The notes below the pieces were generated by a model that searched no databases, was not told the origin of the DNA, and was given only the letters and a program-made list of their open reading frames with translations. Below, piece by piece: positions 5,029 through 24,914 of a DNA stretch of 64,000 bases. Numbering within the stretch: the stretch's first letter is position 1; each line of letters starts with the position of its first letter. Source of the DNA: a virus; the IMG/VR virus record IMGVR_UViG_3300027708_000025, positions 32,001 through 96,000 of that record. The stretch is one strand, 5' to 3'. The position numbers and the translations under genes are program-made.

Positions 5029-5751
5029 CTACCTTTCAATGCTTACATGATGATTAATAACTTTCCGACTGTCAAAAGGAATATCCTTTACCAGCGAATC
5101 AAACTCCATTGTACTGTACTTATCTCTAAAAGTCAAATTCTTATCGGTAAACAAAAACACCAGCAACTCATTAGAATGACTTTTGCCGATTGGCAATTCA
5201 GCTTGCATTTTGTATCTAGTAGATGGAATTTGAATCTGTTTATTAATCTCCAGTACTTTGTCAGTATAGACTAATTGATACTGTTTGTCAACTAAGTTAA
5301 AAATACCAACGGTACCTGTAATCCCAGAGACAGCTTGAAACACAAATCGTTCTCCAACTTTAAGTTGATTCTTGCCATCAACATGGAATTTCATTGAATT
5401 GACAATTTTATGAACATCAACTTCAATGTCAACTTCACATACTTGTCTGTCTCTATTTGGGTAGATTTGTTTATCTTTTTTATAAACAGTTTTAATCTCA
5501 CCACTCACTTCAGTATAAAGAGTAGAAAGCACGGTACATTTCTCATCTTTACAATTTTCGTTTTGTGCGGCTTCAATCATTTCACCCACAAAATTTGTAA
5601 TTGCATTTTGTTTTGCTTTTTCTTCAGCAAGTCTACATGCAACATTTTCAGCAGTATCAGGACCGAATGAGTATTCACCAGTACCTTTTACACGTTCAGC
5701 ATATGCAAGGCTACTCGCACAAAGCAAAGTCATAAAAAATAATTTACGCAA
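5029..5751 (-). CDS. secreted protein
   Basis: Signal peptide; ORF track. Confidence 0.65.
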   Translation of the reverse strand: MRKLFFMTLLCASSLAYAERVKGTGEYSFGPDTAENVACRLAEEKAKQNAITNFVGEMIEAAQNENCKDEKCTVLSTLYTEVSGEIKTVYKKDKQIYPNRDRQVCEVDIEVDVHKIVNSMKFHVDGKNQLKVGERFVFQAVSGITGTVGIFNLVDKQYQLVYTDKVLEINKQIQIPSTRYKMQAELPIGKSHSNELLVFLFTDKNLTFRDKYSTMEFDSLVKDIPFDSRKVINHHVSIER

Positions 5752-6214
5752 CTTTCAATCCTTTCAGTCTATCTGCCGCATAAGAAGCGGCAAATGCATT
5801 TGGTTTAACCATAGGCACAACATTACATGTTCCTTTGATGTAGCCAATTGCTTCGTTAATAACACAAGAACTACCATGCATTTCATTTGGATTAATATCC
5901 AAATGAACTTCAACATCTCGCCCCTCTAATACATCTGCAAGTTTGATATATAACTCAGAAAGTTTATATACCTCTGTCATCAGACGATATCTTGGACGAT
6001 TCACTTTTTGGTCATAGTCACGTTCACGCTGTACTTCACCAAACAATTTGCATCCATGTCTTCCGTCAATGTGAACTACAATAGCAAGAACATAATCTGC
6101 GTACCAAAGCCCACCAATGTTAAATCTTTCAGAATCACAACCAATATAGATTTTAGTATTAGGTGTTTGATCTTCTATGAATTGCCTCACCTCTTCTAAA
6201 TCTAATTTACGCAC
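5744..6214 (-). CDS. RNase H-like YkuK (DUF458) family protein
   Basis: IYIGCDS, VEVHLDIN and KPNAFAASYAAD motifs. Confidence 0.8.
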   Translation of the reverse strand: MRKLDLEEVRQFIEDQTPNTKIYIGCDSERFNIGGLWYADYVLAIVVHIDGRHGCKLFGEVQRERDYDQKVNRPRYRLMTEVYKLSELYIKLADVLEGRDVEVHLDINPNEMHGSSCVINEAIGYIKGTCNVVPMVKPNAFAASYAADRLKGLKVA

Positions 6215-6233
6215 AACTTACTCCTTAAAAACC

Positions 6234-6308
6234 TGGTGGGCAGAGAGAGAATTGAACTCCCACTCAAGCGATTATGAGTCGCCTGCTTTACCATTAAGCT
6301 ACCTGCCC
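6234..6308 (-). tRNA. tRNA-Ile2(CAT), probable lysidine substrate
   Basis: Anticodon arm GGCGA-CTCATAA-TCGCT; encoded CCA. Confidence 0.8.
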
Positions 6309-6315
6309 TAAAACT

Positions 6316-6399
6316 TGGTATGAGAGGAGGGACTCGAACCCTCAATCCTTGCGGCGGGAGATTTTAAGTCTCCTGTGTATACCATTCCACCACTCTCAC
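6316..6399 (-). tRNA. tRNA-Leu(TAA)
   Basis: GGAGA-CTTAAAA-TCTCC; long variable arm; CCA. Confidence 0.92.
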
Positions 6400-6404
6400 A
6401 TAAC

Positions 6405-6481
6405 TGGCCTGACTGGAGGGATTCGAACCCCCGACCGACGGATTAGAAATCCGTTGCTCTATCCTACTGAGCTACAGTCAG
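6405..6481 (-). tRNA. tRNA-Arg(TCT)
   Basis: ACGGA-TTTCTAA-TCCGT; CCA. Confidence 0.92.
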
Positions 6482-6530
6482 AATTAATTTCTATACATGT
6501 AGTATAGTTTATATTGATTTGTGTGTCAAG

Positions 6531-6604
6531 TGGAGCGGGGTAGGAGAATCGAACTCCTGACTTCAGTTTGGAAGACTGAGGTAATACCATTTTACGAACC
6601 CCGC
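6531..6604 (-). tRNA. tRNA-Gly(TCC)
   Basis: TCAGT-CTTCCAA-ACTGA; TCCA end. Confidence 0.92.
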
Positions 6605-6610
6605 ATTTTT

Positions 6611-6684
6611 TGGCATCTCCTGAGAGACTCGAACTCCCACTTACGGTTTTGGAGACCGCAGTACTGCCATTATACTAAGGAGAC
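6611..6684 (-). tRNA. tRNA-Trp(CCA)
   Basis: GCGGT-CTCCAAA-ACCGT; GCCA end. Confidence 0.92.
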
Positions 6685-6689
6685 ATTTG

Positions 6690-7223
6690 TTACGGATTCT
6701 TTGCAGAATGTGGTACATCAAACACGAATGTAATCCTGTCTACTGTACCATTGTTCCACGCAGAATGATATTTCTTATTGTCAAACCAGAAAAATGTTCC
6801 TGGTTCTATTTGTCTTTCTTCACCATCTACTTCATACAAGTAAGTGCCTTGCAATGATAAATGATATCTATCTCTTGTCTCATAATATGTACCATCGTCA
6901 ACGTGGCGACCAACACTATCGTTTGGATTTAATTTAAAGAAAGCGGCTCTTGAAGTTTGCGTAATGTCGTGCTTCTTAAGATACTTTCTCACTTCAGTAT
7001 ACTTATCATAAAGCGGTGTGCGTCTTTGCAAATCAGAATTTTTAGGATTCTCATCTGGACTACGAACCATCGCCATCACTAGAGGAAGAAACCCATACGG
7101 ATTCTTTTCCCCACCAATCTTAGAATAAGTAGAAACTGCTTGCCAATCTGTATCGTCAATCTGCCCTAGAATTTTACTTATGTCAATTCCAGTTTCAATG
7201 AATCTAAAATTACTCATCATCAT
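6690..7223 (-). CDS. aspartyl/asparaginyl beta-hydroxylase-like 2OG-Fe(II) oxygenase
   Basis: HVD...RYHL...WFDNKKYHSA.N...RI motif. Confidence 0.8.
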   Translation of the reverse strand: MMMSNFRFIETGIDISKILGQIDDTDWQAVSTYSKIGGEKNPYGFLPLVMAMVRSPDENPKNSDLQRRTPLYDKYTEVRKYLKKHDITQTSRAAFFKLNPNDSVGRHVDDGTYYETRDRYHLSLQGTYLYEVDGEERQIEPGTFFWFDNKKYHSAWNNGTVDRITFVFDVPHSAKNP

Positions 7224-7869
7224 ATTCCATCAATTGCATACTTCCCGTATGCGGAAAATCGTATCTATCAAAGTGGTCAAAATTTGTTTTACCAATTGGC
7301 ATAATATTCACACCAACAATGATTCTATAATTGCAATCAGTAGGACTTGTTTGATGCGTTGCCCATGCGGGAAACATAACTAACGTACCTGCGACAAAAG
7401 GTAACTCTTCTTGAGACTTCAACATCAATTCATTTTTATCTGAAATTGCAGGTTGTATTACATATTTCTCTGCACCTAGATTTGGAAATACTGTTCCGCT
7501 TGCATTACCATCAGCATCAAACAAATGAAATGAACCACCCAAGAAACTATTCGCATGACTGTGCATGTGATGAAAGCCACCAGCTTTTTGTCTAGTCGCC
7601 CACATACTTGTAATCCCACACTCATCATAATAACCCATATCATCCATTGCATACTTACCACAACTGTGAATGAAGTCTGTTAACTTTTTAACTTTATCAT
7701 CTTTGTGTAAGTTTGCTCTAGTGATTTGAAGCCCATTCCTTTCACGTTCAGAAAGATATAGATTATCCTGTGCAAGATATCGCACTAAGAATTCTTGGTC
7801 ATTCTCAAAGTTTGGATAATGAAATCTCCAAACTGGTGTGTAGAATAGTTTATGTAATTCGACTTTCAT
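7210..7869 (-). CDS. 2OG-Fe(II) oxygenase (TIGR02466-like)
   Basis: HSH.NS...G.LVMFPAW..H...RI motif. Confidence 0.8.
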   Translation of the reverse strand: MKVELHKLFYTPVWRFHYPNFENDQEFLVRYLAQDNLYLSERERNGLQITRANLHKDDKVKKLTDFIHSCGKYAMDDMGYYDECGITSMWATRQKAGGFHHMHSHANSFLGGSFHLFDADGNASGTVFPNLGAEKYVIQPAISDKNELMLKSQEELPFVAGTLVMFPAWATHQTSPTDCNYRIIVGVNIMPIGKTNFDHFDRYDFPHTGSMQLMEYDDE

Positions 7870-8045
7870 TTGTTTTCAAACTCATCATCATACAAACCCA
7901 TCTCTTGGCTGATACGAACCATTTCATCCAATGCGGCTTCTTGGCGTTTTTTTGCAAATGCTCTTTGCTCTTCTTCGGTTCCTAATTCATATCCTTTATC
8001 AGAATGAATCTCTTCGGCTGCCGCAATATTCTTTTTGTCTATCAT
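7866..8045 (-). CDS. hypothetical protein (MIDKKNIAAAEE..., 59 aa)
   Basis: Hand-translated; ATGA overlaps on both sides. Confidence 0.55.
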   Translation of the reverse strand: MIDKKNIAAAEEIHSDKGYELGTEEEQRAFAKKRQEAALDEMVRISQEMGLYDDEFENK

Positions 8046-8515
8046 AAAATCACCCTATGATATTCGTAATTAACTGTATCTTCATTTTCTCTAAAAACAA
8101 CTGCACCATTACGCAAATGAAAACGTCTAGCCAATTCAGTCTTTGGACTTAGCGTAAGGTATCTTTGAATTTCTGGTTTGTTTTCTTTGATGTGACTAAC
8201 AGCATCAAAAATTAATGTACGACCGGCACCTGGAGCATAACTCCAAATGGTATAAAAAATTGCAACAATAGGTTCAGATGAAACTTGAAATAACTCTGTT
8301 TCTTTTGTTGGAATTTCTGTCTGATAACTTACGCATGTGATTGCTTTCACTTTGTCATCTGGATCACGCAACACAAAGATATCTTTGTTGTCGCCAACCC
8401 TATCAACATGTGGAATATGAGGGCGCACAGGATCCTCACTTAACATACTCATTACACTATCAGTAAAAGATTTTATTAGATATAACATTTTTTTATTCTC
8501 ATTTTTTATTCTCAC
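8042..8515 (-). CDS. GNAT-like hypothetical protein
   Basis: YTIWSY.PGAGR.L...A.RFH..NG resembles acetyltransferase motifs A/B. Confidence 0.5.
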   Translation of the reverse strand: MRIKNENKKMLYLIKSFTDSVMSMLSEDPVRPHIPHVDRVGDNKDIFVLRDPDDKVKAITCVSYQTEIPTKETELFQVSSEPIVAIFYTIWSYAPGAGRTLIFDAVSHIKENKPEIQRYLTLSPKTELARRFHLRNGAVVFRENEDTVNYEYHRVIL

Positions 8516-8528
8516 TTCTCTACATTAA

Positions 8529-8603
8529 TGGTGGAGGATGGGAGGATCGAACTCCCACTTCAGACTTGCAAAGCCCATGTGCTCCCATTATCACTAATCC
8601 CCC
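8529..8603 (-). tRNA. tRNA-Ala(TGC)
   Basis: Loop TTTGCAA; G3:U70; CCA. Confidence 0.9.
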
Positions 8604-8605
8604 AT

Positions 8606-9130
8606 TTAACTCGGTGTTATGGTGTTAAACGAAATCACCGTTTTTCTTTTATGTCCTAAGTTTATAGGAGAACGATGCCACAAAGTTGCTGGCATCGTTA
8701 AAATATAACCTTCTTCGACATTAGGAATTACAATAGATTCTGTTTTTTGATTCCTAATTTGAGTCTTAACATCATCACTTGGTAACTCCAGATAATAAAC
8801 ATTTGTCCAATTTGCTGTGCCATGAACATGCCAACCATGAAAACTATTGTTATAGTACTGTTGAAACCAACAATTTAAATATCCAAATTGGGTAAATCCT
8901 AATTTTGAATATACATTTTTCATATGCTCAGTTAGAGAAGGACGTAAAATATTCCAATATTTTCTCTCGACATTCTCTTCAACATACCAATCAGTATTAG
9001 TAATTTTTTTGTCATCATTGATAAAAATTGACATACTATCAATGCTTTTGAGAAGAACATTTTTTAAATTGTCATGTTCTTCAAATTTAGATACCGCATA
9101 TGGACAGTCAATGTAATTGATATCAATCAT
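8606..9130 (-). CDS. 2OG-Fe(II) oxygenase
   Basis: WFQQY...H.WHVH...VYY...PATLWHRS...KTVISFN. Confidence 0.8.
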   Translation of the reverse strand: MIDINYIDCPYAVSKFEEHDNLKNVLLKSIDSMSIFINDDKKITNTDWYVEENVERKYWNILRPSLTEHMKNVYSKLGFTQFGYLNCWFQQYYNNSFHGWHVHGTANWTNVYYLELPSDDVKTQIRNQKTESIVIPNVEEGYILTMPATLWHRSPINLGHKRKTVISFNTITPS

Positions 9131-9145
9131 TATTTTTCAATAAAT

Positions 9146-9349
9146 TTATTTTAGCATTTCTACAACTTCTTCTAGTGTCTCACTTACTTCCCATGTGCCA
9201 TGAGGAGGTCCATAAACAAATGTTACATCTTCAATTACTCCATCTTCACGGGTAACAGTATTTCTGTGTATCGTAACAATTAAATCTTTTCTGATTGAAA
9301 CTTTGTGTCCTCTAAACTCTGGACTTGAATTCGTTAGTGTTATAAACAT
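9146..9349 (-). CDS. small FlbD-like hypothetical protein
   Basis: FI.LT...I...V.ETLEEV pattern. Confidence 0.5.
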   Translation of the reverse strand: MFITLTNSSPEFRGHKVSIRKDLIVTIHRNTVTREDGVIEDVTFVYGPPHGTWEVSETLEEVVEMLK

Positions 9350-9375
9350 GATATTATCCTTTAAAATTATTAAAC

Positions 9376-9449
9376 TGGTCTCGGTAGCAGGAATCGAACC
9401 TACGCTCTATCGTCCCAAACGACAAGTGATACCATTTCACCATACCGAG
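9376..9449 (-). tRNA. tRNA-Pro(TGG)
   Basis: TGTCG-TTTGGGA-CGATA; CCA. Confidence 0.92.
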
Positions 9450-9450
9450 T

Positions 9451-9458
9451 TATTTATA
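9451..9458 (-). promoter_or_regulatory. possible T4-type late promoter TATAAATA
   Basis: Exact consensus between tRNA-Thr and tRNA-Pro; a start site would fall inside tRNA-Pro, so function is uncertain. Confidence 0.3.
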
Positions 9459-9459
9459 C

Positions 9460-9533
9460 TGGTGCCCCATGACAGAATCGAACTGCCGTTACCTGAGTAC
9501 AAAACAGGTGTTCTACCATTTAACTAATAGGGC
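9460..9533 (-). tRNA. tRNA-Thr(TGT)
   Basis: CCTGT-TTTGTAC-TCAGG; CCA. Confidence 0.88.
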
Positions 9534-9538
9534 GAAAC

Positions 9539-10282
9539 TTAAATTGCTTTCTCAATTATATTCTTAGCTAAATTATCCACATCGGCTCTTATGGTGCCTC
9601 CGAGAATAACAATTGCATACTGCTCACCATTCTTATGTACTATCATAACAAGACACTTACCAGCCGCATTCGTTGTGCCAGTTTTGGATACTTCAATGAT
9701 ATCAAATTTATTCATCAACTTCACGTTAGTGTTATTGACTGAAATGTGTTTTTCTTTATTCTTCTTATCTACAACAGTTAAATCGTATCTACTCAATGCT
9801 GATATCTCACGTATTTTATCATGTCTATACGCATCTGTCAACAAGACAACCAAGTCCCTTGCGGTACTGGTATTCCTTGCGCTTAGACCAGACGTATCAT
9901 CAAATTTTGTATTGTACATCTCTAGCGCAATTGCACGTTTATTCATTTGGTAAACTGTCCACAATTTACCGCCCATGCTTTCTGCTAATGCTTCTGCGGC
10001 TCTGTTGTCACTTTTGATTAACATTAAATTTAATAATTCTTCTCTAGTAAACTTATTGTGTGAATAAAACATTCCTTTGTATGGAACTTTCTCATTCAAT
10101 GGAACTCCACTTTCAATTATGACAAGTGCGGTCATCAATTTTGTAATGCTTGCTATTGGTCTTATTGTATCAATTTCAGAATCAACAATTGGATACTGTT
10201 TAGTGATATTGTATGTGTAGACTGTAATCGCACTAGCACTTAATGCCGACAGCAATACTAAAGATAAGATTATTTTTTTCAT
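9539..10282 (-). CDS. D-alanyl-D-alanine peptidase, S11 family (PbpG-like)
   Basis: Signal peptide MKKIILS; SxxK (ASITKLMTA), SxN (SDN) and KTG motifs; start corrected to 10282. Confidence 0.85.
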   Translation of the reverse strand: MKKIILSLVLLSALSASAITVYTYNITKQYPIVDSEIDTIRPIASITKLMTALVIIESGVPLNEKVPYKGMFYSHNKFTREELLNLMLIKSDNRAAEALAESMGGKLWTVYQMNKRAIALEMYNTKFDDTSGLSARNTSTARDLVVLLTDAYRHDKIREISALSRYDLTVVDKKNKEKHISVNNTNVKLMNKFDIIEVSKTGTTNAAGKCLVMIVHKNGEQYAIVILGGTIRADVDNLAKNIIEKAI

Positions 10283-10296
10283 ATGATTCTTTGTAA

Positions 10297-10371
10297 TGGC
10301 TCCAGAGGCAGGGATCGAACCTACGACCAATTGATTAACAGTCAACTGCACTACCGCTGTGCTACTCTGGA
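10297..10371 (-). tRNA. tRNA-Asn(GTT)
   Basis: GTTGA-CTGTTAA-TCAAT; GCCA. Confidence 0.93.
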
Positions 10372-10379
10372 ATAGAAAA

Positions 10380-10455
10380 TGGTTGCGGGTGAAGGATTCG
10401 AACCTCCGTCCTTTAGGTTATGAGCCTAATAGTCTGACCTCTGACGTAACCCGCT
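10380..10455 (-). tRNA. tRNA-fMet(CAT)-like
   Basis: CAT anticodon; 1:72 mismatch; ACCA. Confidence 0.78.
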
Positions 10456-10469
10456 ATAATATATATGTA

Positions 10470-10545
10470 TGGAGTGAGTGACAGGACTCGAACCTGCATT
10501 ATACGGACTTGCAAACCGTTGCCTAGCCTTTCAGCGCACACTCAC
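10470..10545 (-). tRNA. tRNA-Cys(GCA)
   Basis: Loop TTGCAAG; U73 discriminator. Confidence 0.88.
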
Positions 10546-10552
10546 ATAAATT

Positions 10553-10680
10553 TGGCGCTCTACAGGATTCTCACCTGTTCACTGGAGACCCTATAATCAG
10601 GGTTTTTATCCCTCTACTGCCATGAATTGCGAATTCATCGTAGAACCCAAGTTGCGAACTTGGCGTGGAAATATCAGAGC
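10553..10680 (-). ncRNA. tRNA-like structured RNA with CCA end and twin TTCGCAA hairpins
   Basis: GCTCT/AGAGC-GCCA acceptor-like stem; T-arm ACAGG-TGAGAAT-CCTGT; three further hairpins. Confidence 0.7.
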
Positions 10681-10687
10681 ATAAACT

Positions 10688-10762
10688 TGGCGGTCTGTAG
10701 GAGAATCGAACTCCTGTAAGTGGATAGACAATCCACAGTAATAACCTCTATACGAACAGACC
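10688..10762 (-). tRNA. tRNA-Asp(GTC)
   Basis: GTGGA-TTGTCTA-TCCAC; GCCA. Confidence 0.9.
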
Positions 10763-10768
10763 AAAACT

Positions 10769-10853
10769 TGGTGGAGATGATAGGGATCGAACCTATTGTG
10801 ACTTAAGTCGGAAGATTTACAGTCTCCTGCCATACCATTACGGCGGCATCTCC
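10769..10853 (-). tRNA. tRNA-Tyr(GTA)
   Basis: GGAGA-CTGTAAA-TCTTC; long variable arm. Confidence 0.92.
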
Positions 10854-10854
10854 A

Positions 10855-10980
10855 TGGTATTAGATTAGTTGACGCACTATTTGCTACGCTCAACGGAATT
10901 AGTGGCCACCTTACCGTTTATGTACGCAGTTACTCAGGCGTTACGATTGCCCATGGCTTACGTCAACTAATCTAATACCA
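10855..10980 (-). ncRNA. putative structured ncRNA closed by a perfect 20-bp stem
   Basis: TGGTATTAGATTAGTTGACG (10855-10874) / CGTCAACTAATCTAATACCA (10961-10980). Confidence 0.65.
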
Positions 10981-10981
10981 C

Positions 10982-11183
10982 ATTTAATTACACTGGATGA
11001 TTGACAAAAATAACAGTTTTGAACCTGCCCTACCATGTCGTCCATGGATTTGCTTGTCAACCACATTACAGACCAAGTTGTTCCAGCGTGATTCGCTCGT
11101 TCATGTAATCTAGAAGTGCCAGTCCGTCAACTGGTTCTCACTTGTTAAATTACCTACTGGCTTGGTAACCAATGTAATTAAAT
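10982..11183 (-). ncRNA. putative multibranched ncRNA closed by a 15-bp stem
   Basis: ATTTAATTACATTGG / CCAGTGTAATTAAAT (one G-U on minus strand) plus several internal helices. Confidence 0.6.
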
Positions 11184-11184
11184 C

Positions 11185-11260
11185 TGGTACACCTAGGGGG
11201 AATCGAACCCCTCGTTTGCGCCTTGAAAGGGCGCCGTCCTAACCGTTAGACGATAGGTGC
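11185..11260 (-). tRNA. tRNA-Glu(TTC)
   Basis: GCGCC-CTTTCAA-GGCGC; CCA. Confidence 0.92.
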
Positions 11261-11266
11261 ATAATT

Positions 11267-11278
11267 TTTTAAAGAACA
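11267..11278 (-). promoter_or_regulatory. boxA-like antitermination site TGTTCTTTAAAA
   Basis: Matches rrn boxA (TGCTCTTTAACA); lies between the promoter and the next tRNA. Confidence 0.7.
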
Positions 11279-11306
11279 TTTGATTGATTTCTCAATCTAT
11301 GAATAG

Positions 11307-11369
11307 AGTATAACACTCTAAACATTTCCTGTCAACAACTATTTTTGGTAACTGTTGTTTTTTATTAAC
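11307..11369 (-). promoter_or_regulatory. internal tRNA-array promoter: TTGACA-17-TATACT plus degenerate palindrome
   Basis: -10 at 11307-11312, -35 at 11330-11335, box at 11354-11369. Confidence 0.8.
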
Positions 11370-11371
11370 AC

Positions 11372-11459
11372 TGGCAGAGAGTATGAGATTCGAACTCATG
11401 CACCGCTTTCGCAATGACAGTTTAGCAAACTGCTCCTTTAACCACTCAGGCAACTCTCT
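11372..11459 (-). tRNA. tRNA-Ser(GCT)
   Basis: GCAGT-TTGCTAA-ACTGT; long variable arm. Confidence 0.92.
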
Positions 11460-11462
11460 ATA

Positions 11463-11552
11463 TGGCGGAAGCGGTGAGATTCGAACTCACGGAACATTTC
11501 TGTTCGCTAGTTTTCAAGACTAGTGCCATAAACCGGACTCGACCACACTTCC
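11463..11552 (-). tRNA. tRNA-Ser(TGA)
   Basis: CTAGT-CTTGAAA-ACTAG; long variable arm. Confidence 0.92.
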
Positions 11553-11558
11553 ATAACT

Positions 11559-11633
11559 TGGTGCGCCCTGAGAGAATCAAACTCCCACTTCAACGTTCGT
11601 AGCGTTGTGTAATATTCATTTTACTAAAGGCGC
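11559..11633 (-). tRNA. tRNA-Arg(ACG)
   Basis: CAACG-CTACGAA-CGTTG; CCA. Confidence 0.88.
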
Positions 11634-11644
11634 ATAAAAACATT

Positions 11645-11721
11645 TGGTGCCCTCTCTCAGATTCGAACTGAGACTTTACGGCTTCTAAGACCGATCTCTC
11701 TACCAATTGGAGTAAGAGGGC
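11645..11721 (-). tRNA. tRNA-Leu(TAG), short variable arm
   Basis: TCGGT-CTTAGAA-GCCGT; 5-nt variable region; A73. Confidence 0.82.
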
Positions 11722-11724
11722 ATT

Positions 11725-11798
11725 TGGTTCCCAGAGCAAGAATCGAACTTGCGATAAAGGCTTATCAAGCCTACGTTATACCATTTAACTATCCGGGA
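11725..11798 (-). tRNA. tRNA-Ile(GAT)
   Basis: TAGGC-TTGATAA-GCCTT; CCA. Confidence 0.9.
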
Positions 11799-11804
11799 TT
11801 AATT

Positions 11805-11958
11805 TCGATTTTCATCTCCCACTACTAACTATTGCTTCCCAATTTATCGTCCATTGGCACCCGTGGTAGGGCTTTCAATGCTCATCGGCCTTGCGTTCTA
11901 GCGCAAGTGATCCTTGGGATAGGACTGCTAGGCCTTAACTTGCCTAGCATCAAGTGAA
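11805..11958 (-). ncRNA. putative structured ncRNA between tRNA-Val and tRNA-Ile
   Basis: Hairpins TGCTAGGC/GCCTAGCA, GTCCT/AGGAT, CTTGCG/CGCAAG, CATTG..GCCC/GGGT..CAATG. Confidence 0.5.
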
Positions 11959-11959
11959 T

Positions 11960-12034
11960 TGGTACCTTGTGACAGGATCGAACTGCCGACCTTCTCCTTG
12001 TAAGGGAGACACTCTACCGCTGAGTTAACAAGGC
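11960..12034 (-). tRNA. tRNA-Val(TAC)
   Basis: TCTCC-CTTACAA-GGAGA; CCA. Confidence 0.93.
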
Positions 12035-12043
12035 AATTTTCTT

Positions 12044-12119
12044 TGGGGTGACCTATGGAATTCGAATCCATGCTATCGGAATCACAATCCGAGGTGCTAA
12101 CCGCTGACACTAAGGTCAC
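12044..12119 (-). tRNA. tRNA-His(GTG)
   Basis: TCGGA-TTGTGAT-TCCGA; C73. Confidence 0.9.
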
Positions 12120-12131
12120 ACCAAAGAAAAC

Positions 12132-12206
12132 TGGTAGGGGCACCGAGAATTGAACTCGGATTTACTGGTTAAAAGCCAGCTACTCTAGCCGTTGAGTTAT
12201 ACCCCC
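12132..12206 (-). tRNA. tRNA-Lys(TTT)
   Basis: GCTGG-CTTTTAA-CCAGT; CCA. Confidence 0.92.
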
Positions 12207-12210
12207 AAAT

Positions 12211-12285
12211 TGGTGGTGACAGTTGGATTTGAACCAACGACCGATTGCGTATGAAGCAATTGCACTACCGCTGTGCTATGTCACC
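12211..12285 (-). tRNA. tRNA-Met(CAT), elongator
   Basis: ATTGC-TTCATAC-GCAAT; CCA. Confidence 0.85.
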
Positions 12286-12292
12286 TTTTATT

Positions 12293-12366
12293 TGGCAGAG
12301 GGTACAAGGATCGAACTTGTGCTAACAGAGTCAAAGTCTGGTGTGCTACCGCTACACTAACCCCCA
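12293..12366 (-). tRNA. tRNA-Gln(TTG)
   Basis: CCAGA-CTTTGAC-TCTGT; GCCA. Confidence 0.9.
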
Positions 12367-12389
12367 ACATAAAAAATATGGATGCAAAT

Positions 12390-12401
12390 TGTTAAAGAAC
12401 G
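12390..12401 (-). promoter_or_regulatory. boxA antitermination site CGTTCTTTAACA
   Basis: Near-consensus rrn boxA about 24 nt before the first tRNA of the array. Confidence 0.8.
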
Positions 12402-12426
12402 TTTGTAATATATTCGATGATATACA

Positions 12427-12467
12427 CAAAGAAAAACCCCCTAGAGTTTTCAGTCTCTAGGGGGCTT
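12427..12467 (-). terminator. intrinsic terminator of the putative attenuator
   Basis: CCCCCTAGAG-ACTGAAAA-CTCTAGGGGG followed by TTTTTCTTTG. Confidence 0.85.
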
Positions 12468-12516
12468 GTCTTTGTATTCTCTTTGGACTTATGGTCCTCA
12501 GGTATAACAAGCCCCC
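12460..12516 (-). promoter_or_regulatory. antiterminator helix
   Basis: GGGGGCTTGT (12516-12507) is perfectly complementary to ACAAGCCCCC (12469-12460), which overlaps the terminator 5' arm. Confidence 0.75.
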
Positions 12517-12614
12517 ATCACTGGTGCGTGGCAATCGGATTTCTCTGAGCGAGAAATACTCTGCCACGTAATCGGCATATAATTTCTTGTTGAGAGTTTC
12601 GATATTAAATTCAT
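12498..12614 (-). CDS. putative attenuator leader peptide MNLISKLSTRNYMPITWQSISRSEKSDCHAPVMGACYT (38 aa)
   Basis: Hand-translated; ATG 1 nt after the upstream stop; 19 different amino acids; overlaps the antiterminator strand. Confidence 0.7.
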   Translation of the reverse strand: MNLISKLSTRNYMPITWQSISRSEKSDCHAPVMGACYT

Positions 12615-12615
12615 T

Positions 12616-12897
12616 TTAGTTTACTGTTTCTTCGTTAAAAATATTAGACCATTTCTGGAGTTTTGCTTTCTTGTTTGCGGATGCTTTATCTACGTCATCA
12701 ATGTTAATGATACCTGTTTCAATCATCAACTGAATCATACAAAATAAATCACCAACTTCTTCTGTCAATCTGTCTCGGTTAGATGCACCATTGTGTTCAC
12801 CATCTAAACCAAATCTAAAAACTTTACTGATTGCCTGTGTCACTTCGGCACATTCTTCTTGTGCAATTAGTAAAACTTCTTTTTCAACACTATTCAT
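12616..12897 (-). CDS. MazG-like NTP pyrophosphohydrolase
   Basis: EECAEV..AISK...EEVGD motif. Confidence 0.8.
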   Translation of the reverse strand: MNSVEKEVLLIAQEECAEVTQAISKVFRFGLDGEHNGASNRDRLTEEVGDLFCMIQLMIETGIINIDDVDKASANKKAKLQKWSNIFNEETVN

Positions 12898-20137: not shown

Positions 20138-20404
20138 TTATTCTCGGGTTTCGTTTTGAAATTGTTTTTCCATTTTTACTTCACTATACAAATAATCGTA
20201 TAGTTCTTTAATACCGCCAATGTATTTTGCATCGTGATATATGTGAGGAACAAAATTAGTTTCTGGAACTAATATCCTCAATTGTTCTATTGAATAATCT
20301 TGACCCAATATGAATAATTTATATTGGCGTCTACAGACTGTCAACAGCGTTTCAACTTTATTGGTTGTTCTGCTTCCCTCTGCACCATAAACATAATACG
20401 TCAT
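20138..20404 (-). CDS. glutaredoxin-fold protein lacking CxxC
   Basis: VP.I....YIGG..EL motif. Confidence 0.6.
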   Translation of the reverse strand: MTYYVYGAEGSRTTNKVETLLTVCRRQYKLFILGQDYSIEQLRILVPETNFVPHIYHDAKYIGGIKELYDYLYSEVKMEKQFQNETRE

Positions 20405-24293: not shown

Positions 24294-24914
24294 TTAAGTT
24301 AAAATTTCAATCGCATGATTGTAATGATTGATTCTGTCTTCTAAGCCAATGAACCCACCATTGATTCGTTTTGTCATTGTCTTCATATCTCCAATATCTG
24401 CTAGTTCATTTAGTCTAGCGGCAGACCAAAACCAACAAGCAGAGTGAGTAGCATACTCTGTTTCAAGTAACAAATCAGGATTCTCAACTAACACATTGCT
24501 TTCAAACAATGATTGCGAACACTTAGTGTAATTGTTCTTTCCTGTAATCTGTACAATGCCTCTACCACGAAAGTACCAACCTTCTCCAGATGCTTCATCT
24601 CCATTGCCCATACGATTAGCATATACACGATTAGCAATCATTTCTGGTCTACGTTCATATAACTTTGCTTGGGCTTCAGTAGGAAAGTATTTCTTAAATG
24701 TGCCAACTAAACCTTTAGCAGAGTAATTCAAATTCTCTTGCATCAAAGTAAAGCCACCAGACTCATGTCCACATTGTGCCATGAATGCCGCAACTCTATG
24801 CGGTGTATCTATATCGTATTCTGGCAATATATTCAGTAAATTATTATACCATTCGTCAAAGTTTTTTACTTTAGGTATCAACTGTCTTACTGCATCTTCC
24901 GTAAAAAAGTCCAT
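24294..24914 (-). CDS. GH19-family endolysin
   Basis: AQCGHESGG, ENLNYS, FRGRG.VQITGK.NY, INGG..GL..R. Confidence 0.9.
   Translation of the reverse strand: MDFFTEDAVRQLIPKVKNFDEWYNNLLNILPEYDIDTPHRVAAFMAQCGHESGGFTLMQENLNYSAKGLVGTFKKYFPTEAQAKLYERRPEMIANRVYANRMGNGDEASGEGWYFRGRGIVQITGKNNYTKCSQSLFESNVLVENPDLLLETEYATHSACWFWSAARLNELADIGDMKTMTKRINGGFIGLEDRINHYNHAIEILT

Follow-up and report, generated by a model that had tools for sequence, protein, structure and literature searches.

The DNA analysed here, which we call the window, is a stretch of 64,000 nucleotides (nt) comprising bases 32001-96000 of a complete, 150,107-base-pair (bp) virus record with terminal repeats, IMG/VR record IMGVR_UViG_3300027708_000025; the phage under study is referred to as WIN. 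On the minus strand of the window a short open reading frame (ORF) and an intrinsic terminator stand between a MazG-like gene and a large array of tRNA genes. We propose that this ORF leads a ribosome-mediated attenuator into the tRNA array, that coverage of the amino acids by its codons is a family-wide property, and that in WIN, whose array has lost tRNA-Phe, the Phe codon of the leader went by relaxed selection. Taken as a whole, this is in our judgement the probable explanation of the observations, which are set out below together with those that do not fit it.

The DNA polymerase of WIN is T4 gp43-like and about 54% identical to the polymerases of T4-like cyanophages. The DNA sequencing runs that contain the WIN stretch are mostly freshwater metagenomes. 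From these two observations WIN is taken to be an uncultured, mostly freshwater, T4-like phage. The elements of the putative switch, in the order in which they would be transcribed, are as follows.

12616-12897, minus strand: gene for a MazG-like nucleoside triphosphate pyrophosphohydrolase (Pfam PF03819, E 5e-6), with annotated homologues in cultured phages.
12498-12614, minus strand: 38-codon leader ORF; about 30 variants have a homologous one.
12528-12567, minus strand: hairpin P1, within the leader ORF (codons 16-29).
12546-12548, minus strand: leader codon 23, TCA (Ser) in WIN, placed by alignment in the 5-nt loop of P1.
12507-12516, minus strand: region 2, GGGGGCTTGT, within codons 33-36 and ending 6 nt before the stop codon.
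12460-12469, minus strand: region 3, ACAAGCCCCC, a perfect 10-bp complement of region 2.
12424-12467, minus strand: intrinsic terminator (13-bp stem, 8-nt loop, T tract).
12389-12401, minus strand: boxA-like element CGTTCTTTAACAA, downstream of the terminator and upstream of tRNA-Gln, the first gene of the array.
6234-12366, minus strand: tRNA array, 24 tRNA genes for 19 amino acids (ARAGORN), interleaved with ORFs.

Relatives were gathered by three routes, using the MazG gene, a conserved tRNA-Gln stretch and a leader motif, and were labelled L001 onward; one search pattern matched more than 119 metagenome contigs. About 30 distinct, divergent leader variants stand before tRNA arrays in uncultured freshwater T4-like phages. 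For the analysis of composition a leader was defined by position only, as an ATG-initiated ORF of at least 20 codons ending no more than 95 nt upstream of the terminator, which avoids selecting the ORFs for what they encode. All 20 amino acids are present within 37-43 codons in 21 of the 29 variants, against about 0.2% by chance, and the other eight have 19 or, in the single case of L005, 18. Fourteen representatives at 16-82% identity are complete (20/20), every one of them with Phe. The joint probability for 14 complete leaders is about 1e-20, with residues shared with the nearest relative counted as inherited. Val, Ile and Lys shift position between families, and coverage stays. A family rule of 'all 20' amino acids, with split codon boxes enriched, is strongly supported by these comparisons.

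To measure the enrichment of split boxes, expected numbers were derived from codon usage and the number of residues of each kind. Of the 29 leaders, 28 have both Leu boxes (19 expected) and all 29 have both Ser boxes (23.1 expected). Both Arg boxes are found in 21 of 29, or in 21 of the 23 leaders that have at least two Arg residues (12.5 expected), and ATA accompanies ATY in 21 of 29 (8.5 expected). Since starvation for an amino acid would hit all of its isoacceptors alike, the covering of both boxes points to the sensing of tRNA species, and selection on leader codon content at this level is supported by the sequences compared. A property at the level of amino acids is selectable only through translation, and the element is for this reason read as a ribosome-mediated attenuator. 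It is from this selection on amino-acid content that we infer translation of the leader.

The second strand of evidence is structural. In 30 of 30 variants the 3' end of the ORF, at a point 0-25 nt from the stop codon or overlapping it, pairs with the 5' arm of the terminator. The pairing energies are -16 to -26 kcal/mol, compared with about -10 for shuffled sequences (mean z -4.7), and because the paired sequences differ between families there is covariation at the level of the helix. Terminators sit upstream of nearly all related arrays. The cassette accompanies the tRNA array and not MazG; in distant relatives it lies 7-9 kb from MazG and has its own promoter. In L037 (10700-10901), L071 (19860-20048) and L076 (18550-18740) the -10 box of the leader promoter ends about 10 nt before the ATG, so near that the leader mRNA would be almost leaderless and the start of translation tightly tied to transcription. 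The clade conserves hairpin P1, one pair of which shows a compensatory change in L015; region 2 is not part of P1, which may act as a pause hairpin for RNA polymerase.

A different ORF, of 25 codons and 18 residue kinds, precedes an array starting with tRNA-Ile in L118 (9852-9929, minus strand) and also occurs in L104 and L122. The terminator there is another one, with a 5' arm that pairs with the 3' end of this ORF; the ORF may be a shorter version of the leader device, or its true start may lie upstream.

The WIN leader itself has 19 kinds of residue, with Phe alone missing, and uses 31 distinct codons in 38. An earlier note on the window (the original prediction) had called attention to the fact that this set is the one served by the array, and both halves of that statement hold: the 38-codon ORF, read from 12614 to 12498 on the minus strand, encodes the same 19 residues as the 24 genes called by ARAGORN in the window, and neither includes Phe. 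The codons that it had listed for split boxes are likewise present as described, namely TTA and CTC for Leu, TCN and AGT for Ser, AGA and CGC for Arg, and ATA and ATT for Ile. By standard wobble each WIN tRNA species has a cognate leader codon, the exception being Leu-UAG, which would need four-way wobble on CTC.

How often such coverage arises by chance was estimated in several ways. At least 19 residue kinds per 38 codons are found in 1.7% of segments of that length from the long ORFs of the WIN genome and in 2.7% of codon-usage simulations; exactly 19 kinds with only Phe missing are found in 0.03-0.09%. The full combination described in the original prediction, 19 kinds without Phe plus all four split boxes, has a chance of about 7e-6, a nominal value that overstates significance because the features were picked post hoc. 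Of 796 ORFs of 30-50 codons in the WIN genome one qualifies, and that one is the leader. It is the comparative evidence that carries the real weight. The leader peptide matches no Pfam family.

We suggest that the attenuator gates read-through from the MazG operon into the tRNA array. A single base separates the MazG stop codon, TAA, from the leader ATG, so that coupled translation is possible and transcription enters the leader from the MazG operon. Region 2 is the upstream strand of the antiterminator, and region 3, its partner, overlaps 8 nt of the terminator 5' arm. A ribosome that arrives promptly at the leader stop codon would cover region 2; the terminator would then form and transcription would stop. 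A ribosome held at an earlier codon, or the absence of a ribosome, would leave region 2 free to pair with region 3, which would block the terminator and allow RNA polymerase to pass boxA and transcribe the tRNA genes. A leader that has codons for all amino acids, both boxes for Leu, Ser and Arg, and AUA would in this way report decoding by each tRNA species and not the supply of a single amino acid. Constrained folding is consistent with the scheme. The nascent WIN RNA forms the antiterminator in such folds and a ribosome placed at the stop codon leaves the terminator only; for L037 and L071 the antiterminator becomes the fold of lowest energy once a ribosome is placed no further along than codon 30. 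Leaders of most families reach their full complement of residues immediately ahead of region 2.

Several findings weigh against the attenuator as drawn here. At equilibrium the full WIN leader RNA prefers the terminator in every state and never the antiterminator, so that switching in WIN must be kinetic. In the WIN clade region 2 takes in or borders on the codons of Val32 and Gly34, and because a stall within about 12 nt of region 2 should cover it and favour termination, these two residues are probably unsensed and not all 19 would be monitored; in several relatives Val has been lost from the leader. No clear Shine-Dalgarno sequence accompanies the ATG of the WIN leader, and use of this start codon may rely on coupling to the MazG stop codon. 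The interval 12424-12845 is represented piecewise in metatranscriptome contigs of four lake studies, but contigs cannot show strand, ends or level, and with DNA carry-over possible they attest the presence of the sequence only and bear on termination neither way. Lastly, in many relatives the stretch from terminator to boxA contains a strong promoter, or two of them, so that the attenuator is not always the sole input to the array. The attenuator model of the original prediction thus stands as regards the conserved pairing and the selected coverage; translation of the leader and stalling upon it, with the direction of regulation that would follow, are parts of the model that we would expect from these features.

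The promoters are unevenly distributed. L001, L003, L005-L007, L010, L012 and L015/L016 have an insert of about 70 nt between the terminator and boxA (WIN counterpart 12402-12433, minus strand) that carries a near-consensus sigma-70 promoter (TTGACA, 17 nt, TATACT, with TG). No good promoter was found between the terminator and boxA in WIN, L002, L004 and L013, and the first tRNA block in these phages seems on that account to depend on read-through. Within the WIN array itself there are promoters at about 11335-11307 and 6529-6501. The boxA-like motif (CGTTCTTTAACAA in WIN, TTCTTTAA[C/A]AATT in relatives) precedes the first tRNA gene in every related array, L001-L130. We name it for its likeness to what we take to be the rrn boxA consensus, and it suggests an rrn-type, Nus-factor antitermination of the untranslated tRNA transcript.

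ARAGORN assigns the WIN tRNAs (one-letter code) to Q, M (three with anticodon CAU), K, H, V, I, L (two), R (two), S (two), E, Y, D, C, N, T, P, A, W and G. The absence of tRNA-Phe extends beyond the window: none was found in the entire 150,107-bp genome with the Rfam tRNA model or with ARAGORN, including at a lowered threshold, and a BLAST search of the WIN genome with the tRNA-Phe gene of a relative gave no match. The ancestral order of the array, as seen in L012, is Arg(ACG), Phe(GAA), Ser(UGA), Ser(GCU), and alignment places the vacant position in WIN.

11553-11558, minus strand: tRNA-Arg(ACG)/tRNA-Ser(UGA) junction, the tRNA-Phe(GAA) slot of relatives.

The deletion is precise and the junction lies inside a short direct repeat (GCACCAAG).

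The original prediction had also credited the phage with two Ile isoacceptors. The ATA and ATT codons are in the leader, and the second tRNA depends on how the three CAU tRNAs are told apart. They were sorted by comparison with the annotated Met, initiator Met (fMet) and Ile2 tRNAs of phage T5, which gives identities that are suggestive: the tRNA at 10380-10455 is initiator-like (1:72 mismatch) and that at 12211-12285 is elongator-Met-like. By elimination the third is probably tRNA-Ile2, an assignment that we make tentatively.

6234-6308, minus strand: CAU-anticodon tRNA, candidate tRNA-Ile2 (predicted to read ATA).

Inventories of this kind call for some care. L002, L004, L013 and L101 have a divergent Ser(UGA)-type tRNA-like gene between tRNA-Arg(ACG) and tRNA-Ser(GCU) that ARAGORN does not call, and in L006/L007 a homologue of the WIN tRNA-Cys (11774-11850, 88% identical) is likewise uncalled. 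ARAGORN misses such non-canonical genes, and inventories from a single caller are thus unreliable in these arrays. The apparent lack of tRNA-Ser(UGA) in L002, L004 and L013 and of tRNA-Cys in L006/L007 was dropped from consideration after alignment and BLAST revealed the non-canonical copies.

In relatives with tRNA-Phe, codon 23 is TTT, the only Phe codon of the leader. Where tRNA-Phe is missing the codon is TCA in WIN, L006/L007, L162 and L176, and CTT in L101, L195 and L222. Among the clade contigs for which both states are known, 13 have the Phe codon and tRNA-Phe, seven have neither and two are discordant, so that 20 of 22 agree. TCA and CTT are not easily derived from one another, and the Phe codon has consequently been lost at least twice on backgrounds devoid of tRNA-Phe, which is what relaxed selection predicts. 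In the WIN lineage, on this account, the tRNA-Phe gene would have been deleted and the sole Phe codon of the leader replaced by Ser. That the joint loss stems from relaxed selection, the array being no longer able to supply a tRNA for the codon, seems to us close to an even proposition, if anything slightly short of it. We regard the relation as a tendency and not as a strict design rule, and the evidence for Phe-specific tuning of the leader as suggestive. The wider proposition, that leader codons track the array such that the matching test codon follows when a tRNA gene is gained or lost, we consider doubtful. The co-variation that the original prediction looked for in relatives is there for Phe in the 20 of 22; it amounts to two to four contrasts, and Asn, Val, Cys and Gln are not mirrored.

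The same agreement might arise if the attenuator were real and the Phe match a product of coincidence and linkage, with codon 23 drifting freely in a hairpin loop where constraint is least. We give this account serious weight, as less likely than the one favoured here. The 5-nt loop of P1 makes codon 23 the cheapest site in the leader to change, and sequences that are nearly identical show four states of it. Within one shallow clade the Phe codon has disappeared three separate times, and one of these losses, to ATT in L010, goes with a rearranged array in which tRNA-Phe is present. L235 shows the converse: TTT is kept, and its Arg gene is followed directly by Ser with no tRNA-Phe at the slot. 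Codon 23 lies about 1 kb from the slot, the two are inherited together, and variants from one ancestor would be expected to travel in company. A tree of 25 distinct sequences yields two well-supported independent contrasts, both concordant, or four if all branches of the best tree are admitted; a sign test on the two gives p 0.5 and is unable to reach significance. Nor is Phe matched by other residues, since clade leaders have lost Val though tRNA-Val is present, and L006/L007, L015 and L043, in which BLAST and a covariance scan of whole contigs revealed no tRNA-Asn, retain two or three Asn codons. With a single codon at stake for Phe and two or three for Asn, the Asn cases are weak counter-evidence. 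What coincidence accounts for less readily is the 20 of 22 contigs in agreement, the use of two different replacement codons on tRNA-Phe-less backgrounds that are interspersed on the tree with Phe-containing ones, and the tightness with which the rest of the family holds the Phe codon (14 of 14 divergent representatives). The account favoured here supposes a causal link between the two losses.

At the other extreme, the leader might be an exact mirror of the array, designed to carry codons only for the tRNAs that can be replaced. This was the sense of the original prediction, in which the sensor monitors only tRNAs that the phage can replace, and it is attractive for WIN, with its 19 amino acids on either side, and for L002, L012, L016 and L102, where arrays with a complete set follow 20/20 leaders. 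We think it improbable. Asn codons persist in the leaders of L006/L007, L015 and L043, as described above, and leaders without Val (L106, L167 and L190), Cys (L105 and L121) or Gln (L123) precede arrays that contain the corresponding tRNAs; L010 and L235 add the two discordant cases for Phe. As a rule the exact mirror is refuted, and only non-canonical genes located elsewhere for the 'missing' tRNAs could save it. Still less probable, in our view, is that there is no sensor and that the ORF either encodes an ordinary small protein or goes untranslated, with the hairpin serving as terminator of the MazG operon and the tRNA genes transcribed from their own promoters. The strong promoters directly after the terminator in many relatives, the conservation of some peptide motifs within families and the indirect case for leader translation, made from sequence, would agree with this. 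However, neither RNA structure nor a folded protein of 38 residues explains why the content of all 20 amino acids is kept across 16-82% identity. In every case the stop codon adjoins or overlaps the strand in competition with the terminator; the cassette moves with the tRNA array and not with MazG, and the peptide resembles no Pfam family.

The attenuator proposed here is built on a known principle. In the enterobacterial leaders trpL, hisL, pheL, leuL, thrL and ilvL, and in pheM of pheST, a short leader likewise precedes an antiterminator in competition with an intrinsic terminator, and the position of the ribosome decides the fold, as we suggest for WIN. Sensing of more than one amino acid is already found in the thr and ilv leaders, and the target of pheM is a gene of the translation apparatus. 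The device of WIN and its relatives differs in that it precedes phage tRNA genes and has no run of one codon, the classical regulatory feature; no codon of any kind is repeated in a run in the WIN leader, which instead has single codons for all amino acids represented (19 in WIN) and for both boxes of the split families. No region 1:2 anti-antiterminator is evident, and many relatives start the leader near the 5' end of the transcript. A scan against Rfam gave no leader family at the gathering threshold, the best match being His_leader RF00514 at 28.5 bits against a threshold of 49. A similar sub-threshold His_leader match (27.2 bits) lies on the opposite strand over the terminator, so that the hairpin of the terminator accounts for these matches.

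In function the nearest precedent is the upstream ORF (uORF) of whiB7/wblC in mycobacteria and other Actinobacteria. In Mycobacterium smegmatis the whiB7 uORF attenuator contains 19 of the 20 amino acids and stalling gives antitermination; it is induced by knock-down of many tRNAs, synthetases and biosynthetic genes, its single Trp codon is required for the sensing of Trp starvation, so that one codon is enough for a response, and residues absent from the uORF are not sensed (PMC10274678). By analogy with such content-dependent sensing, the reasoning of the original prediction is physically plausible. The broad composition is shared with the WIN leader. The whiB7/wblC uORF differs in serving a host stress regulon with a transcription factor as target, in being enriched in Ala and in not being kept complete across species; with no sequence relation to the WIN leader and no link to tRNA genes, it is alike in its working and belongs to another class. 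T-box riboswitches, too, sense the state of a tRNA species and alternate between a terminator and an antiterminator in front of genes related to translation, but they bind uncharged tRNA directly, need no ORF and respond to one tRNA each, and no T-box match was found by Rfam in the WIN region. The comparison of CGTTCTTTAACAA with the NusB/NusE-dependent boxA of rrn operons holds in so far as the WIN element stands after the terminator and before an untranslated tRNA array; unlike rrn boxA it is a separate element downstream of a switch, and the likeness is one to the boxA consensus.

Searches for such a device in better known phages were negative. Blastn with the WIN leader region and with the L120-type cassette against 50,697 cultured-phage records gave zero matches. 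Tblastn with a leader peptide against cultured phages gave matches at chance level only, and no cultured model phage with the leader was found. None of the annotated small ORFs in the tRNA region of phage T5 is a short all-20 leader, and full-text literature searches returned no paper describing attenuator control of this type over phage tRNA genes.

Other features of the arrays are recorded here for completeness. Arrays of L110, L112 and L123 contain tRNAs with the stop-codon anticodons TTA (reading UAA) and CTA (reading UAG; labelled 'Pyl' by ARAGORN), which are possible suppressor tRNAs. In the window, minus-strand gaps between tRNA genes without an ORF are found at 11799-11959 (161 nt), 10854-11184 (331 nt) and 10546-10687 (142 nt). 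The genes interleaved with the array (5744-10351, minus strand) encode an RNase H-like protein (5744-6214), an Asp/Asn-hydroxylase-like cupin (6690-7223), two 2-oxoglutarate-Fe(II) oxygenases (7210-7869 and 8606-9130) and an S11 D-Ala-D-Ala carboxypeptidase with a signal-peptide-like N terminus (9539-10351). At lowered threshold ARAGORN reports a weak tRNA-Gln(CTG)-like match on the plus strand of the window (20232-20307). Upstream of the window, at 24378-24767 of the genome, it reports a candidate permuted transfer-messenger RNA (tag ANDSRFALAA).

How and why phages carry and deploy large sets of tRNAs is a long-standing question, and recent work ties phage tRNAs to escape from tRNA-cleaving defences (PMC10264068, PMC11464382, PMC11555353). 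A leader and terminator ahead of the array would give these phages a built-in gauge of decoding capacity that governs their own supply of tRNA. The Phe case offers a first handle on whether the gauge is tuned to the tRNAs that a phage can supply; if it is, restoring TTT at codon 23 should add sensitivity to limitation of Phe-tRNA. Should leader codons truly track the array, the device would be a feedback controller resolved to the level of tRNA species, which would switch on the phage's own tRNA supply upon depletion of any tRNA that it can replace, through the action of host anticodon nucleases for instance, and the leader sequence could be read as a record of the tRNAs that matter to the phage.

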